This document shows, piece by piece, positions 1 to 57,899 of a DNA stretch of 64,000 bases; the first letter of the stretch is position 1; every line of letters starts with the position of its first letter. Position numbers and translations under genes: made by a program. The notes under the pieces were generated by a model. It did not search any database. It was not told the origin of the DNA and saw only the letters and a list, made by a program, of their open reading frames with translations. The DNA comes from Candidatus Sericytochromatia bacterium (GTDB lineage: Bacteria; Cyanobacteriota; Sericytochromatia; S15B-MN24; UBA4093): NCBI GenBank assembly GCA_036676985.1, contig JAKFBU010000043.1:38668-102667 (forward strand), given 5' to 3'.

Positions 1-1405
1 ACGTCACGGCCGTGCGCACCACGGCACGCAGGGACTCGAAGTCGAAGCGCCCGTCCGCGTCGACCAAGGCCGGGAGGTTGATCGAACCCAGGTTGCAGAC
101 GGCCGTCTCGCTGGAGCTCGTGACTTCCAGGATTTCGGTGCAGAGGTTGCTGGAGTGGATGACATTGCGGGGCAGCCGGGTCTGGGCGGATCGCCTGTTG
201 GCCGTGTCCTTGAAGCACATCCAGCCGTTGCCAGTCTCGGCGAGGGCCTGGATCATCCGAGCGTAAAGCGCCCGGGCGCTCACCTGCCGGCGGGCCAGTC
301 CCCGTTCCTCCAAGTTCGTGTAGGCCGCATCGAACGCGTCGCCCCACAGGTCGACCAGTTCGGGCGTCTCGGAGGGGCAGAACAGGCTCCAAGCCTCGTC
401 CGCCTCCACCCGTTTCATGAACAGGTCGGGGATCCACAGGGCCAAGTTCAGGTGGTGGGTTCTACGCTCCTCGGCGCCAGTGTTGTTGCGCAATTCGAGG
501 AAGGCCTCGATGTCGACGTGCCAAGGCTGCACGTAGATGGCAGCGGCTCCCTTCCGCTTGCCGCCCTGGTTCACGGCATGGACCGAGGAGTCGAGCACCT
601 TGAGGAAGGGGACGAGCCCGCTGCTGATCCCGTTGTTCCCGTTGATGAGCGAGCCAGAGCCGCGAACCTGCGTCCAGTCGATGCCGATGCCCCCGGACCA
701 CTTGGAGAGGCGGGCGCAGTCCGCGTAGGCCTTGTAGATCGCCTCCAGGCTGTCCTCGCCCACCGTGAGCAGGTAGCACGAGGACATCTGAGGATGCCGC
801 GTGCCCGAATTGAAGAGGGTGGGCGAGGCCGTCATGTACCGGAAGGTGCTCAGCGTCTCATACAGTTCGATCGCTTCAGAGACGCTCTCGGCGAGGCCGA
901 GGGCCACGCGCATGAACATCCACTGGGGACGCTCGATGACCTGCCGCCCTCGCGGATGTCGCAGCAGGTATCGATCGTAAACCGTCTTGAGCCCGAAGTA
1001 TTCGAACAGGCGATCACGCGAATGATCGATGGCCGCGACGAGCCTGGGCAGGTCGGTCTCGGCTCGGATCCGGACCTCGGGATCGAGCAGCTTGAGCGCG
1101 ATGCCGTCCGCCAGGTACTGGTCAAAGGAGCGGTCCTGGCCGACCTCCTCGGCGATGTACTCGGCCAGGAGGCGCGCGCCGACCAGGGAATAGTTCGGCT
1201 CCTCGGCGACCAACATGACGGCGGTTGCAATCGAGCGCTCATCAAGCTCGCGCGTGGTGCTGCCCTCGTGCAGCCCGCTGATGGTCTGCTTGGCCACTTC
1301 GACGGCGTCGACCCCTTCTAGACCCTCGCAGGCGTGGCTGACGGCCCGCAGAATCTTCTCGAACTTGACGTCTTCCTTGGAACCATTGCGTTTAATGACT
1401 TGCAT
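1..1405 (-). CDS. nrdA: Ribonucleoside-diphosphate reductase class Ia alpha subunit (3' part beyond window)
   Basis: Translated by hand, absent from the ORF track. N-terminal ATP cone MQVIKRNG; motifs SPTLFNSG, QMSSCYL, NQGGKRKGA and HSSNLCTEI with the catalytic N-x-C-x-E. Confidence 0.95.
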   Translation of the reverse strand, partial: MQVIKRNGSKEDVKFEKILRAVSHACEGLEGVDAVEVAKQTISGLHEGSTTRELDERSIATAVMLVAEEPNYSLVGARLLAEYIAEEVGQDRSFDQYLADGIALKLLDPEVRIRAETDLPRLVAAIDHSRDRLFEYFGLKTVYDRYLLRHPRGRQVIERPQWMFMRVALGLAESVSEAIELYETLSTFRYMTASPTLFNSGTRHPQMSSCYLLTVGEDSLEAIYKAYADCARLSKWSGGIGIDWTQVRGSGSLINGNNGISSGLVPFLKVLDSSVHAVNQGGKRKGAAAIYVQPWHVDIEAFLELRNNTGAEERRTHHLNLALWIPDLFMKRVEADEAWSLFCPSETPELVDLWGDAFDAAYTNLEERGLARRQVSARALYARMIQALAETGNGWMCFKDTANRRSAQTRLPRNVIHSSNLCTEILEVTSSSETAVCNLGSINLPALVDADGRFDFESLRAVVRTAVT

Positions 1406-1433
1406 AGCGGCTCATCTCTTTCGGTGAGGGGGG

Positions 1434-2468
1434 TCATGCGCGGCTCGACGCGATCGCGTCGAGCCGCGCGCGAAGGGATGAATGGTGGCGGATCAGCTGC
1501 AAGGCACGCTCGGGCGCCTCGGGCAGGAGGCCGAACCCGATCAGCATTCGAACGTCACGCCCGACCACTTCGGCCCCAAGCGCCGCCGCCTGGAAGGAGG
1601 TGGCCATGTTGAAGAAGTAGACCTCGCCGTTGTCGCGGCAGCAGGCGACGGCAGCGGTCTCCGTGCCAGGCCTGTTCGCACAATCGACGACGACGTCCGC
1701 AAGCGCTTCGCCCGTGATGGCTAGGAAGCGCTCTAGCACGCTGGGCGGTCGGGTCGCATCCGCCACCAGCGGGGTCACCCAGGGAGGCAGCCCCTCGAGG
1801 CATGCGACTTGCTCGGAGAGGGGAACCAGCGCGATCACCTGGCCGGTGGGGCCAACCTGGTCGGCAGCGGCATAGGTGGCGAGTAGCCCGGCCTTGCCGG
1901 CGGCGCCGATGACGAGGATGCGAGCACCCGGCTGTGCCAGGCGCTGGGTCTGGGGAACGACCCCACACACATCGAAGAGGCTCAGGGCCAGCGAGAAGGG
2001 CAGGTCCTCGGGGATGAGAGCATACTTGGCCGCCGGAGAGAGAACGGCCCTCCCTTCGACCCAGACCTGGTGGTTCTCCGGGGTGAGGTGTCGAACTCGG
2101 CGCAAGGTGAGGGGGACCAAGGTGTTGGAGACGAGGGTCGCCACACTGGATCCAAGGGGCACCTCACCCTGACGACCTCGCCCCAGGGCCACGATGCGCC
2201 CGGCCATGACGCCGCCCGAGCCTGTTCGCGGGTTGTGCAACTTTCCGCGCTCGGCAACGATCGCCAAGATCTCGGAGGTGATCGCCTCGTGATCCCCCCC
2301 ATGCTGGCGCATGAGGTCTTGAAAGCTCGTGGCATCGAGGTTGAGGACCGTCACGTCCATGGCAAGCTCATCGGGCTCGAGATCGGGGGCCGGGTCGAGA
2401 CGCCAGGCATGGTAGGGAGTGGCTCCCACCGGGGAGACAATCCGGTTGAGCCCTGCGAAGCTACTCAT
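1434..2468 (-). CDS. kdd: L-erythro-3,5-diaminohexanoate dehydrogenase-like protein (Kdd family)
   Basis: Kdd-type motifs AWRLD, LNLDATSF, RGKLHNPRTGSGG, ATLVS..L.PL, FFNMATSFQAAALGAE; Rossmann GAAGKAG. Confidence 0.8.
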   Translation of the reverse strand: MSSFAGLNRIVSPVGATPYHAWRLDPAPDLEPDELAMDVTVLNLDATSFQDLMRQHGGDHEAITSEILAIVAERGKLHNPRTGSGGVMAGRIVALGRGRQGEVPLGSSVATLVSNTLVPLTLRRVRHLTPENHQVWVEGRAVLSPAAKYALIPEDLPFSLALSLFDVCGVVPQTQRLAQPGARILVIGAAGKAGLLATYAAADQVGPTGQVIALVPLSEQVACLEGLPPWVTPLVADATRPPSVLERFLAITGEALADVVVDCANRPGTETAAVACCRDNGEVYFFNMATSFQAAALGAEVVGRDVRMLIGFGLLPEAPERALQLIRHHSSLRARLDAIASSRA

Positions 2469-2943
2469 GGCGCCTCCCTTGCGGACAGTTGTTGCGCAGG
2501 CGCTCGGCGATCACCCATTCCTCCCTTGCCTCTGGACTGTTTAGCAAGAGGGCAGGGACCTCGCTGGGATGACCGTCGTCCGAGAGGGCGACCATGTGAA
2601 AGTAGCCGCTCGTCGCATGCTCACGGCTGCCGCCGATGGGGTCCTCGGCGAAGAGCTCGACCTTAACAGTCAAGGACGTTCGCCCCGCATAGACGACCTG
2701 GGCGACGAGTTCGACCAGGTGCCCGTGTTTGATGGGCAGGTGAAAGTCAATGCGTTCCGTGGAGGCCGTCACGATGGCCTTTTGGGCATACCGGGAGGCG
2801 GCCAGGAAGGCCGCTCGGTCCATGAGATCCAGGACCTTGCCCCCGAACATGGTGCCGTAGTGGTTGGTGGCGTTGGGGAAGACCATTTCGGCCAGCCGAA
2901 CGGGTTCGGCCTGGCGTGCCGCGAGGGCAGTAGGCGAAGACAT
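2461..2943 (-). CDS. Acyl-CoA thioesterase, hotdog fold (YciA/TE6 family)
   Basis: VFPNATNHYGTMFGGKVLDLMD; GRTSLTV; GAGGAG RBS before the ATG at 2943. Confidence 0.9.
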   Translation of the reverse strand: MSSPTALAARQAEPVRLAEMVFPNATNHYGTMFGGKVLDLMDRAAFLAASRYAQKAIVTASTERIDFHLPIKHGHLVELVAQVVYAGRTSLTVKVELFAEDPIGGSREHATSGYFHMVALSDDGHPSEVPALLLNSPEAREEWVIAERLRNNCPQGRRHE

Positions 2944-3077
2944 GCAGAGCTCCTCACTCGTGAGCCGCGGCCACAAGCCGGCAACAACGAGTCTGGGAGC
3001 CCTAAATGACGGCGTGAAGGGACATGGACCTTCAAGCGTGCGGCTCTCTGAACCTCGAAGAGCGGGTGGCACGCGTC

Positions 3078-3180
3078 ATACCTGGTAGGCGATCGGGCTC
3101 ACGAGCGAAGGCTCGCATACCGTTGCGGGACAGCACCGGATTCTCACCGGATTTCCCCTGGGCCAGGCGACAATACGTAG
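3078..3180 (-). promoter_or_regulatory. Cobalamin (B12) riboswitch
   Basis: Minus strand reads GGGAAATCCGGTGAGAATCCGGTGCTGTCCCGCAACGGT...GAGCCCGATCGCCTACC, matching the aptamer core and B12 box; lies upstream of a class Ia nrdA operon. Confidence 0.88.
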
Positions 3181-3184
3181 CACT

Positions 3185-3213
3185 ACGGTATTTAAGCTTG
3201 CTGGCTTTGTCAA
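3185..3213 (-). promoter_or_regulatory. sigma70-type promoter of the riboswitch operon
   Basis: TTGACA-17 nt-TACCGT immediately 5' of the riboswitch. Confidence 0.6.
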
Positions 3214-3628
3214 TCACCAAGCGACGGCGAGCCCGGGCCCATGTGAGGCAGAAGCAGGGCGTTGAACAACGATCACCGGCAGTTTTGGCGTCTCGACGGC
3301 AGGTGGTAGGTACCGGGGTTGCATTCCCGCCGCTCCGACCGCCCCCCTGCTCTGTGAGGACGAGCGAGAGTCATGGCACGATTTGGTCGTAGCGTCAGTT
3401 TGAGGCTGTAAGAGTAGCCCTGCCAGCAGGGCCCGTCGTTGTCCGTGGCGAGGCGGCGATGGGGAGAAAGTTCAGAACCAATCAGTCCGCTGTCTTGCCT
3501 CGGGTGGTTATTATTCTGGTCAAGGTCATAACCGGATTCGAACTAAGGAAATTCCCAAGAAACCCGATCTATCCTGGATCGAAAGGAGACCAAAGACGCG
3601 CAGCCAGCACCACGCTCTTAAACAATGA

Positions 3629-3666
3629 ACCCCCGAAACGCGATCTTCCTCGCGTTTCGGGGGGAC
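3629..3666 (-). terminator. Hairpin downstream of the tRNA operon
   Basis: CCCCCGAAACGCGA...TCGCGTTTCGGGGG inverted repeat. Confidence 0.6.
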
Positions 3667-3669
3667 TAG

Positions 3670-3743
3670 TGGGCACAACTGGATTCGAACCAGTGACCTC
3701 ATCGATGTCAACGATGCGCTCTAACCAACTGAGCTATGCGCCC
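3670..3743 (-). tRNA. tRNA-Val(GAC)
   Basis: GGGCGCATAGCTCAGTTGGTTAGAGCG-CATCG TT GAC AT CGATG-...GGTTCGAATCC...GTGCCCA; CCA not encoded. Confidence 0.96.
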
Positions 3744-3766
3744 TGAATTCCTTGGAATTCAAGGAG

Positions 3767-3837
3767 AGGCGGCACCCAGATTCGAACTGGGGGTGGAGCT
3801 TTTGCAGAGCTCTGCCTTACCACTTGGCTATGCCGCC
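3767..3837 (-). tRNA. tRNA-Cys(GCA)
   Basis: GGCGGCATAGCCAAGTGGTAAGGCA...CTGCAAA...GTTCGAAT...GTGCCGCCT. Confidence 0.96.
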
Positions 3838-3888
3838 GAAATGCTTCGGCCCGCGATTCCCCCAAAGGAACCTTCGGGCCGACGCGAG

Positions 3889-3961
3889 AGCGGGTGACGC
3901 GATTCGAACGCGCGACAGCCTGCTTGGGAAGCAGGTACTCTACCAGCTGAGTTACACCCGC
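3889..3961 (-). tRNA. tRNA-Gly(CCC)
   Basis: GCGGGTGTAACTCAGCTGGTAGAGT-CCTGC TT CCC AA GCAGG-...GTTCGAAT...CACCCGCT. Confidence 0.96.
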
Positions 3962-3973
3962 GAAGCGAATTCC

Positions 3974-4002
3974 AAGATACCGAAGGTCCCGGCGATTGTC
4001 AA
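3974..4002 (-). promoter_or_regulatory. sigma70 promoter of the tRNA operon
   Basis: TTGACA-17 nt-TATCTT just upstream of tRNA-Gly. Confidence 0.7.
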
Positions 4003-4200
4003 CCGAGCGCTGCTGTCGCCCGAGGAGGATTAACTTAATATTTCTTGACACTCCCGCTCTGCGGCCCTTAGGATCGTCCCGTAATGTTACCTGGGTGCCG
4101 CATGGTTGCTTGCTCGGGGCCCAATCGCACGGGTCGGGGGTACGGTCCAGCGCCGTCCCCTCCGTTCAGCGACCGCAGCCGATTGAGAGGAGGGTCTTTC

Positions 4201-56576: not shown

Positions 56577-57899
56577 TCAAGGAGCCACCTGGCCTGTCGC
56601 CACCAGGCGCTTGTAGAGGTCCATGTAATGTCGCTTGCGGCGGGTGTAGACCTGCTCGTTGTAGAGCTCGCCGAATAGGTACATCAGCCCCTCTTCCAGC
56701 TGCCGCACGGTCATTCCCTTTGGCCTGAAGGTCACATCGAAGAGCGTGCAGCGGTCCCAGTATTCATCCTGCAATAGGCGCCCCTCGGCCTTCAGGCGGT
56801 GGTAGAGGCGGGTATTGGGGAAGGGCGTGAGGACCGTGACCTGGCTCTCCAGCAGGTTCGAGTCCAGGATGAAGTCCCGCACCACCTCGAACGTGTCGGG
56901 CGTATCCCCGTCCAGACCCAGGATGAAGCACCCGTTGACCGTGATGCCCTTGGACTGGATGGTCTCGATGGCCTTGCGGTAGCCGTCGAGCCGCTTGCGT
57001 TTCCAGTTGGACCGGTCGATCCCGTCCAGGTTCTCGGGCGCCACGCTCTCGAGCCCGATGAGGATCTGCTGGCAGCCGCTCTGTGCCAGCAGCTCAAGCA
57101 TCTCCGGGTCGTCGGCGACCGAGATGTCCGTCTCGGTGAACCAGCGGATGTCGCGCTCGGCCATCTCGCGCAGGAAGCGCTTGGCCCACTCCTTGTTCAC
57201 GAAGGTGTTGTCGTCCGCGAGCTCGATGAACGGGTTCTTCCAGACCGCCTCGATGGCGTCGATCTCGCGCATGAGCTGCTCGACTGGTTTGATCCGGTAG
57301 CGTCCGTAGATCTTGGAGGCCGCGCAGAACTCGCAGTCCAGGGGACAGCCGCGCGAGGTCTGGACCGTCAGTCGGTTGTAACGATCGAGGTCGAGCAGGT
57401 CGTAGCGCGGTATGGGCGTGGTCGAGAGGTCGTACGACCCGGGCTTCGCCTCTCGGTAGTAGGGCTTTAGTTGCCCCTTGCGCGCATCCTCCAGGATGAG
57501 GGGCCATTGCGACTCGCCCTCGCCCACGCAGATGGCGTCCGCATGCCGCTTGGCCTCCTCGGGCATCAGGGTGGCATGCAGCCCGCCGATGACCACGGGG
57601 ATGCCCGCCGCCCGGTACTGGTCGGCGAGGTCGTAGCACTCGTAGGCCATGGCCGTGAACGTGGACAGCCCCACCAGATCGAAGTCCGTGCGCAGCCCAT
57701 GCTGCTGGAGGTCGGCCACCTCGAGGTACTCGACCTCCACCTCCGGCGGCGTGACGGCCGCCAGCGTGAGCATGGCGAGGCTGGGCAGGGACGCGATGAC
57801 CTTACCGCGCTGGACGAAGCCCGGCAGGCTCACGCCGAGGGCGGCGAGCTCCTCCGAACGTACCCGCACCCCGCTCATGGAGATGAGCCCGACGCGCAT
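56577..57899 (-). CDS. B12-binding-domain radical SAM protein
   Basis: VVIGGLHATL and VGEGE (B12 domain); QTSRGCPLDCEFC; DDN, GLES, FILGLDGD, TPFPNT. Confidence 0.92.
   Translation of the reverse strand: MRVGLISMSGVRVRSEELAALGVSLPGFVQRGKVIASLPSLAMLTLAAVTPPEVEVEYLEVADLQQHGLRTDFDLVGLSTFTAMAYECYDLADQYRAAGIPVVIGGLHATLMPEEAKRHADAICVGEGESQWPLILEDARKGQLKPYYREAKPGSYDLSTTPIPRYDLLDLDRYNRLTVQTSRGCPLDCEFCAASKIYGRYRIKPVEQLMREIDAIEAVWKNPFIELADDNTFVNKEWAKRFLREMAERDIRWFTETDISVADDPEMLELLAQSGCQQILIGLESVAPENLDGIDRSNWKRKRLDGYRKAIETIQSKGITVNGCFILGLDGDTPDTFEVVRDFILDSNLLESQVTVLTPFPNTRLYHRLKAEGRLLQDEYWDRCTLFDVTFRPKGMTVRQLEEGLMYLFGELYNEQVYTRRKRHYMDLYKRLVATGQVAP

Follow-up and report, generated by a model that had tools for sequence, protein, structure and literature searches.

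Ribonucleotide reductases (RNRs) are the textbook case of a B12-repressed backup, with the B12-independent NrdAB standing in for the B12-dependent NrdJ, and cobalamin riboswitches are found on class I RNR genes that occur beside NrdJ, for example, on nrdABS of Streptomyces. Here, we describe an operon at the edge of a 64,000-nucleotide (nt) stretch of DNA from a Candidatus Sericytochromatia bacterium (GenBank assembly GCA_036676985.1, contig JAKFBU010000043.1, positions 38,668 to 102,667; G000:C43:38668-102667 in our numbering, in which G000 is the source genome), hereafter called the window. The operon, which lies entirely on the minus strand, runs from a promoter and an adenosylcobalamin (AdoCbl) riboswitch to the genes for an acyl-CoA thioesterase, for a divergent paralog of the Kdd family that we name KddL, and for NrdA, with nrdB following past the window edge. 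It shares with the Streptomyces system a cobalamin riboswitch in the 5' leader of nrdAB, an NrdJ in the same genome, and a B12-independent isozyme that is available when B12 is lacking. It differs in that the thioesterase and KddL genes intervene between riboswitch and nrdA, in that the riboswitch-thioesterase unit is also found without nrdAB, and in its lineage, since the closest relatives of the canonical Kdd of this genome come from Sericytochromatia or Cyanobacteria metagenome-assembled genomes. As an explanation of the locus as a whole, we favor, with moderate confidence, a B12-repressed operon that would include the promoter, the riboswitch, and all four genes from the thioesterase gene to nrdB.

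An earlier note on this DNA, made from its letters alone, had placed a promoter, a riboswitch, a thioesterase gene, a kdd-like gene overlapping it by 8 nt, and, 28 nt further, nrdA in a single orientation, and all of these elements are confirmed here on the minus strand. The promoter-like site (3185..3213(-)), read from sequence and alignment, consists of a -35 hexamer TTGACA (3213-3208), a 17-nt spacer, and a -10 hexamer TACCGT (3190-3185); a consensus promoter scan returned no sites, and the -10 hexamer agrees with the consensus at three of six bases. Across six aligned 5' regions, the -35 hexamer is whole in five (the exception being locus L074, with TAGACT), and four -35 bases (T, G, A, C) together with the -10 pattern TA...T are invariant in all six. 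The thioesterase gene (2461..2943(-), 160 amino acids [aa]) shares 8 nt between its stop and the start of the KddL gene (1434..2468(-), 344 aa), with the common sequence ATGAGTAG, and a spacer of 28 nt separates the KddL stop from the nrdA start at 1405. The 5' part of nrdA (1..1405(-)), covering the ATP cone, the all-alpha region, and the barrel (Pfam ATP-cone, Ribonuc_red_lgN, and Ribonuc_red_lgC), reaches the window edge, and the gene extends past it.

At 3033..3180(-), the leader matches the covariance model of the AdoCbl riboswitch, RF01482, over the full model (positions 1-149; 47.1 bits, E = 2.2e-7), and the same aptamer is found in a search of the whole genome (E = 2.8e-7). The orthologous elements at loci L038, L070, L071, L072, and L073 score between 55.3 and 65 bits, long invariant aptamer blocks are common to the six aligned loci, and 7 of the 61 base pairs predicted from the alignment show compensatory changes. 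The B12 riboswitch called in the earlier note is thus borne out by the AdoCbl model, by its genome-wide significance, and by the conserved core in orthologous leaders. The aptamer is placed 90 nt 5' of the first ATG, and between the two, RNA folding and alignment delimit an expression platform hairpin (2944..3032(-)), in which UAGGGCUCC pairs with GGAGCUCUG and which sequesters both the Shine-Dalgarno (SD) sequence GAGGAG (2955-2950) and the AUG. The fold of 2930-3040(-) has a minimum free energy of -46.6 kcal/mol (z = -3.2), and the anti-SD/SD helix is conserved (alignment columns 283-289/318-324), while a terminator scan found no terminator-like site and no U-tract terminator from the aptamer to the ATG. 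Apart from this one, the genome has a single B12 riboswitch, which lies 5' of a gene for a TonB-dependent (BtuB-like) receptor.

The link between this riboswitch and the first gene of the operon is conserved. In a context survey of nine loci that carry a thioesterase ortholog (at least 61% identity), which represent about five independent lineages because L070 to L073 are close kin of the relative G007, a B12 riboswitch lies directly 5' of the thioesterase gene in all nine; six of these riboswitches score over the Rfam gathering score, and those of the window, L074, and L126 (the last cut by a contig end) fall under it. KddL is found directly 3' of the thioesterase gene in seven of the nine loci, and nrdA lies downstream in six, the contig of L072 ending too early to tell. 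Conversely, KddL is preceded by the thioesterase gene and a B12 riboswitch in 7/7 loci with a readable upstream side. Among 41 relatives, KddL was found in G007 only (64% identity), a genome that also has a canonical kdd and in which the order is AdoCbl riboswitch (62.7 bits), thioesterase, KddL (again with an 8-nt overlap), nrdA, and nrdB; the metagenome contigs L070, L071, and L073 show the same order, and L072 ends after KddL. The association of riboswitch and KddL that the earlier note had read from one locus is therefore kept in other lineages, once without nrdAB: at L074 (KddL 50% and thioesterase 61% identical), a riboswitch with a weak score (RF00174, 27.1 bits) and core blocks identical in the alignment over 16 nt is followed by the thioesterase and KddL, then by a gene for a 581-aa protein (2314-4059(+)) without a Pfam or PDB match and by genes of the arginine succinyltransferase pathway. 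Further downstream at L074, we observe a weak match to a cspA thermoregulator-like element (41.8 bits versus a gathering score of 78). At L075, the gene after KddL is convergent.

Two further loci carry the riboswitch and the thioesterase without KddL. G027, from the same class and another family, has a riboswitch (RF00174, 40.2 bits), a thioesterase (65% identity), nrdA, and nrdB. G093 (L126; G093:C293 1-2715) lacks both KddL and nrdAB and has a riboswitch (45.2 bits), a thioesterase (61% identity), a hemerythrin (793-1269), and then two proteins at 1297-2259 (320 aa) and 2359-2715 (118 aa), neither of which has a Pfam match, the 320-aa protein also having no PDB match; the genes at this locus are possibly another B12-repressed set. 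The constant partner of the riboswitch is the thioesterase and not KddL, which is dispensable, being absent from G027 and G093. Nine further thioesterase/KddL pairs were matched by source contigs of equal size (the nine include P0140/P0003, which is the pair of G007 counted above), which suggests that thioesterase and KddL go together across the whole KddL clade, its second subclade included. A scan of genome contigs with the KddL alignment returned 31 loci, all canonical in type with at most 47% identity, and no further genome with KddL. Outside this lineage, no thioesterase ortholog was found in five genomes of other phyla that carry a canonical kdd, nor in 93 genomes from the phylum to which G401 belongs.

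The thioesterase is a hotdog-fold protein of the YciA/Acot7-like type, with a 4HBT domain (PF03061, 67.5 bits versus a gathering score of 20.6) and 27 PDB sequence matches at an E value of 0.001 or less, many of them acyl-CoA hydrolases and the best being 2gvh (E = 1.5e-60). It resembles YciA/Acot7-type thioesterases (PDB 2gvh, 2eis, 1vpm, 5szu, and 6vfy, among others) in this domain and in the strength of the sequence matches, and it differs from them in staying below the cut-off of the YciA equivalog (NF007970, 54.9 bits versus 162) and in its predicted control by a riboswitch. The block VFPNxTNHYGTxFGGKVL..MDRAAF, which we take to hold the catalytic Asn and Asp, is kept in nine orthologs. 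The most likely start codon is ATG 2943, which has GAGGAG 6 nt before it and from whose Met the nine orthologs align; a longer frame from GTG-3072 is disfavored, as it would overlap the aptamer. Assignment of the protein as Kal (3-aminobutyryl-CoA ammonia lyase, NF052388) was rejected at 19.6 to 20.4 bits versus a cut-off of 160, the true Kal being encoded on contig C75 (180.8 bits).

With respect to the second gene, the closest described enzyme is 3,5-diaminohexanoate dehydrogenase (3,5-DAHDH, or Kdd), which section 4.1 of PMC9902596 presents as the only reported beta-amino-acid dehydrogenase, with strict specificity. KddL resembles the Cloacamonas enzyme (7DL0/7DL1/7DL3/7DL7) in fold and at 33 to 34% sequence identity: it matches 7dl3 over residues 6-332 (E = 7.8e-56), and its AlphaFold model (predicted local distance difference test score, 87.8) superimposes on 7DL0, 7DL3, and 7DL7 chains with template modeling scores of 0.80 to 0.87. 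Its score on the Kdd equivalog NF052381 (169.5 to 171.4 bits) nevertheless stays below the curated cut-off of 200. The homologs of KddL fall into two sets, about 26 proteins at 46 to 67% identity and a large remainder at 40 to 47%, and a tree of 121 rows (120 listed matches minus the 229-aa fragment P0005, plus both copies of this genome) separates 27 KddL-type rows from 94 canonical rows, with Shimodaira-Hasegawa-like approximate likelihood ratio support of 100 on both sides and with the genome's own canonical Kdd within the 94.

Both clades have R74-G75-K76, N79, T82, S84-G86, the GxGxxG motif, E300, and G313 in common (window numbering). They differ at positions that are each 95 to 100% fixed inside their clade: A47, L115, T118, N262, S287, Y314, and H318 of the canonical signature are T, N, V, D, N, L, and A in KddL and across its 27-row clade, so that none of the seven is kept, positions 170-172 read V-V-P in the KddL clade and A-P-A in canonical Kdd, and R99 is fixed in the KddL clade only. 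The model puts D262 at the end of Rossmann strand D, N287 after strand E, and both L314 and A318 after strand F; these four residues neighbor E300 and G313, whose aligned counterparts in 7DL3 are E310 and G323, residues located at the NADPH amide according to section 4.1 of PMC9902596. From alignment and model, we infer that the clade-specific residues line the substrate and nicotinamide site. Such a pocket, altered near the nicotinamide site, would mean that beta-amino-acid dehydrogenase chemistry is kept and the substrate changed, and the most likely function of KddL is that of an NAD(P)-dependent beta-amino-acid dehydrogenase with a predicted substrate other than 3,5-diaminohexanoate.

The KddL clade is rare and well separated. 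A profile search of 1.84 billion representatives returned 268 Kdd-family members at an E value of 1e-30 or less, and among the best 150 of these 268, 78 carry the canonical signature, 5 the KddL signature, and 41 other signatures, with 26 fragments; one further fragment has a partial KddL signature. Long forms also occur in the family: in nine that we examined, Kdd-family domains are fused to sigma-54 activator modules in four (P0272, P0299, P0364, and P0382) and to acetyl-CoA-synthetase-like AMP-binding enzymes in three (P0316, P0332, and P0349), and a third active-site signature (..LVPNSVQ) is seen in P0316 and P0349 and also in a broader set of single-domain proteins. The Kdd family is thus functionally more diverse than one name conveys.

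KddL also differs from canonical Kdd in its surroundings, as it is not beside kce or kamDE and adjoins the thioesterase behind a B12 riboswitch; the neighborhood survey found no kce at the KddL loci L038 and L070 to L075. At canonical loci, kce lies directly upstream of kdd in L076 to L078 (and at the cut contig start in L079) or 1.1 to 4.8 kb downstream of it in L083, L084, L088, and L092. As had been stated for this window, no kamA, kamDE, or kce is found in it; kamA, kamD, and kce sit on contig C56. There, the genome holds a second, canonical kdd (NF052381, 236.7 to 239.4 bits versus a cut-off of 200), which adjoins kce (390.6 bits, cut-off 382) and lies near kamD (770 bits), kamE, and a kamA-family gene (232.6 bits), so that KddL is not the only Kdd-family protein of this organism and the bypass idea of the earlier note passes the first refutation test set for it. 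A methylmalonyl-CoA carboxyltransferase-type gene (TIGR01117, 834 bits) follows the kamA-kamDE-kce-kdd cluster (C56:208025-217690), and a gene for a 1,230-aa IcmF-like fused acyl-CoA mutase (G000:C56:237492-240866) lies about 20 kb from it. Away from this cluster, a second paralog of the Kce (BKACE) family is encoded at G000:C38:164924-165754(-) (L103 7916-8767), near a short-chain dehydrogenase (SDR).

The last genes of the operon encode a class I RNR. The full nrdA product has 766 aa, with 699 bits on TIGR02506 (cut-off 341) and an ATP cone (Pfam, 44.5 bits), and it is followed by nrdB (PF00268, 254.4 bits). The E. coli-type class Ia model NF006578 gives 282.6 bits versus a cut-off of 813 and the class Ib model TIGR04170 gives 251 versus 750; NrdA has the ATP cone, and the operon is without nrdI and nrdH. 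NrdJ is encoded on contig C23 (716.6 bits, cut-off 400), a pattern that fits the proposal, made for this DNA before, that NrdAB is the B12-repressed, B12-independent isozyme to NrdJ, and G007 and G027, both of which carry the cassette, have an NrdJ as well. Further B12 enzymes in the genome comprise a MetH-sized protein, a methylmalonyl-CoA mutase (MCM), a fused MCM, the IcmF-like protein of 1,230 aa, KamE, and B12-radical-SAM (S-adenosylmethionine) proteins. The window itself encodes a B12-binding radical SAM protein at 56577-57899(-), with Radical_SAM, B12-binding, and DUF4070 domains.

Concerning the integrity of the locus, contigs from other sequencing runs, one of them from a different study, span 1023-1467 and 1440-3140/3695 with few differences, so the gene order is not an assembly artifact; none of the runs found to contain the locus is an RNA run. 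In contigs of two other runs, one base is absent at position 1428, in the spacer between KddL and nrdA, which is intergenic strain variation. Directly upstream of the operon lies a cluster of tRNA-Val(GAC), tRNA-Cys(GCA), and tRNA-Gly(CCC) genes (3669-3961(-)), with a strong terminator-like hairpin beside it (3630-3663(-)), indicating that the operon has its own transcription start.

Under the B12-repressed operon that we favor, plentiful AdoCbl would most likely make the aptamer favor the hairpin, in which the ribosome-binding site and AUG of the thioesterase gene are buried. With the thioesterase untranslated, the downstream genes would be silenced through translational coupling across the 8-nt overlap and through transcript polarity. 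When B12 is scarce, the operon would be expressed, and the oxygen-dependent class I reductase NrdAB would stand in for the B12-dependent NrdJ. We read the thioesterase as truly belonging to the B12 regulon, since it is the one riboswitch target that never varies. Most likely, in line with a suggestion of the earlier note, it would hydrolyze a broad range of short-chain acyl-CoAs and so release CoA from thioesters stalled while AdoCbl enzymes idle; three or four acyl-CoA mutases and KamDE are encoded in the genome. KddL and the thioesterase would probably belong to a common pathway, with KddL acting either earlier or later than the thioesterase on a beta-amino acid that is not 3,5-diaminohexanoate, and with beta-lysine or N6-acetyl-beta-lysine as the most coherent guess for its substrate. 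Since the thioesterase occurs without KddL in G027 and G093, KddL would depend on the thioesterase and not the reverse.

Several observations weigh against this explanation. The window aptamer, at 47.1 bits, is under the RF01482 gathering score of 50 (clan CL00101), and Rfam at the gathering threshold returned three tRNAs alone for the window and missed the riboswitch. We regard it as highly improbable that the aptamer is decaying in this genome and the operon constitutive: the low score and an outer P1 helix that is gapped when aligned to the model are in keeping with decay, and yet the core is identical to that of orthologs scoring 55 to 65 bits, the platform hairpin is intact, and the element is significant genome-wide. 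That the ligand-bound state would be the sequestered one is carried over from other B12 riboswitches. Because the thioesterase is independent of KddL, a pathway that requires the two together is less convincing, and many thioesterase homologs of 55 to 69% identity exist in other phyla, some of them named Bdellovibrionia and Oligoflexia, where the riboswitch link may not hold. Furthermore, among 401 genomes sampled from the phylum, only 4 have a thioesterase ortholog, which is rare in comparison with the presumably common B12-dependent mutases, which indicates that it is not a general solution to their idling. KddL, seen in 2 of 41 genomes, and the nrdA type of the operon are similarly patchy, with 3 of 31 relatives carrying this nrdA and two more having an nrdA that is 45 to 46% identical. 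The cassette has a G+C content of 63.4% (nrdB, 58.9%) versus 67.3% for the genome, and its flanks differ between G000 and G007, which place it in different neighborhoods; it may be an acquired block, and the gene combination may in part reflect the history of a mobile block and not a shared function. A mobile and patchy cassette leaves room for the explanation, doubtful in our view, that the riboswitch serves nrdAB and that the thioesterase and KddL hitch-hike with no tie to B12, KddL perhaps being an ordinary 3,5-diaminohexanoate dehydrogenase isozyme, in line with its retention of all shared catalytic-scaffold residues. Against such passengers, riboswitch, thioesterase, and KddL stand together without nrdAB at L074, where the riboswitch core is identical over 16 nt, and riboswitch and thioesterase stand with neither nrdAB nor KddL in G093; in addition, about 10 near-invariant positions separate KddL from the 94 canonical Kdds, and KddL stays under the curated Kdd cut-off.

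A more specific version of the B12-repressed operon, which extends an idea of the earlier note and which we consider unlikely, would make it a bypass of KamDE. KddL would deaminate beta-lysine or N6-acetyl-beta-lysine oxidatively at C3, a BKACE would cleave the resulting 3-keto acid with acetyl-CoA, and the thioesterase would hydrolyze 4-aminobutyryl-CoA or 4-acetamidobutyryl-CoA, releasing gamma-aminobutyrate or 4-acetamidobutyrate, so that lysine catabolism through KamA could run without the AdoCbl-dependent KamDE when B12 is scarce. Pseudomonas B4 is said to use a B12-independent beta-lysine route of this type, through N6-acetyl-beta-lysine and 3-keto-6-acetamidohexanoate, cleavage with acetyl-CoA, and a deacetylase-thiolesterase; we know of no gene assignments for it. 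The two schemes would be alike in oxidizing a beta-lysine derivative at C3, in a Kce-like cleavage, in a thioesterase, and in the lack of B12, and they would differ at the C3 step, which in the Pseudomonas route is reportedly catalyzed by a transaminase and not a dehydrogenase. Consistent with a bypass, beta-lysine is made in this genome (by a kamA-type gene), two BKACE genes are present (Kce and the second paralog), the thioesterase always precedes KddL, a canonical kdd accompanies KddL in both KddL genomes (two genomes checked), and the gain of D262 together with the loss of Tyr and His (L314 and A318) close to the nicotinamide site would suit a substrate that is longer and ends in an amine. 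This pocket reading draws on sequence and secondary structure only, however, and the co-occurrence on two genomes; the second BKACE adjoins the SDR outside the operon, no acetyltransferase was found in the operon, and in G027 and G093 the riboswitch precedes the thioesterase gene although KddL is missing, so that the thioesterase has a role wider than the bypass pathway.

In the literature, our search found no paper in which a thioesterase or Kdd-family gene is tied to a B12 riboswitch, and none that treats a cobalamin riboswitch, a thioesterase, and an RNR together in a relevant way, a result that does not extend to the supplementary regulon tables of comparative riboswitch studies, which could list such cases, and no paper in which a B12 riboswitch, an acyl-CoA thioesterase, and methylmalonyl-CoA were found together. 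The portions of PMC4465626 that bear on this place thioesterases in siderophore clusters and cobalamin riboswitches in B12-synthesis and uptake clusters. The control of nrdAB beside NrdJ by a B12 riboswitch is already known, and the thioesterase-KddL pair in a B12 regulon is what we did not find in print. B12 riboswitch regulons are used to predict stand-ins for B12-dependent enzymes, and the thioesterase, as the constant first gene, and the rare KddL subfamily would both be additions to that list. The pair would imply a consequence of B12 shortage beyond the supply of methionine and deoxynucleoside triphosphates, in the handling of acyl-CoA or beta-amino acids. The KddL clade, with its predicted remodeled pocket, is a candidate biocatalyst, and if the bypass were true, no beta-amino-acid dehydrogenase found in nature before KddL would have used anything but 3,5-diaminohexanoate.

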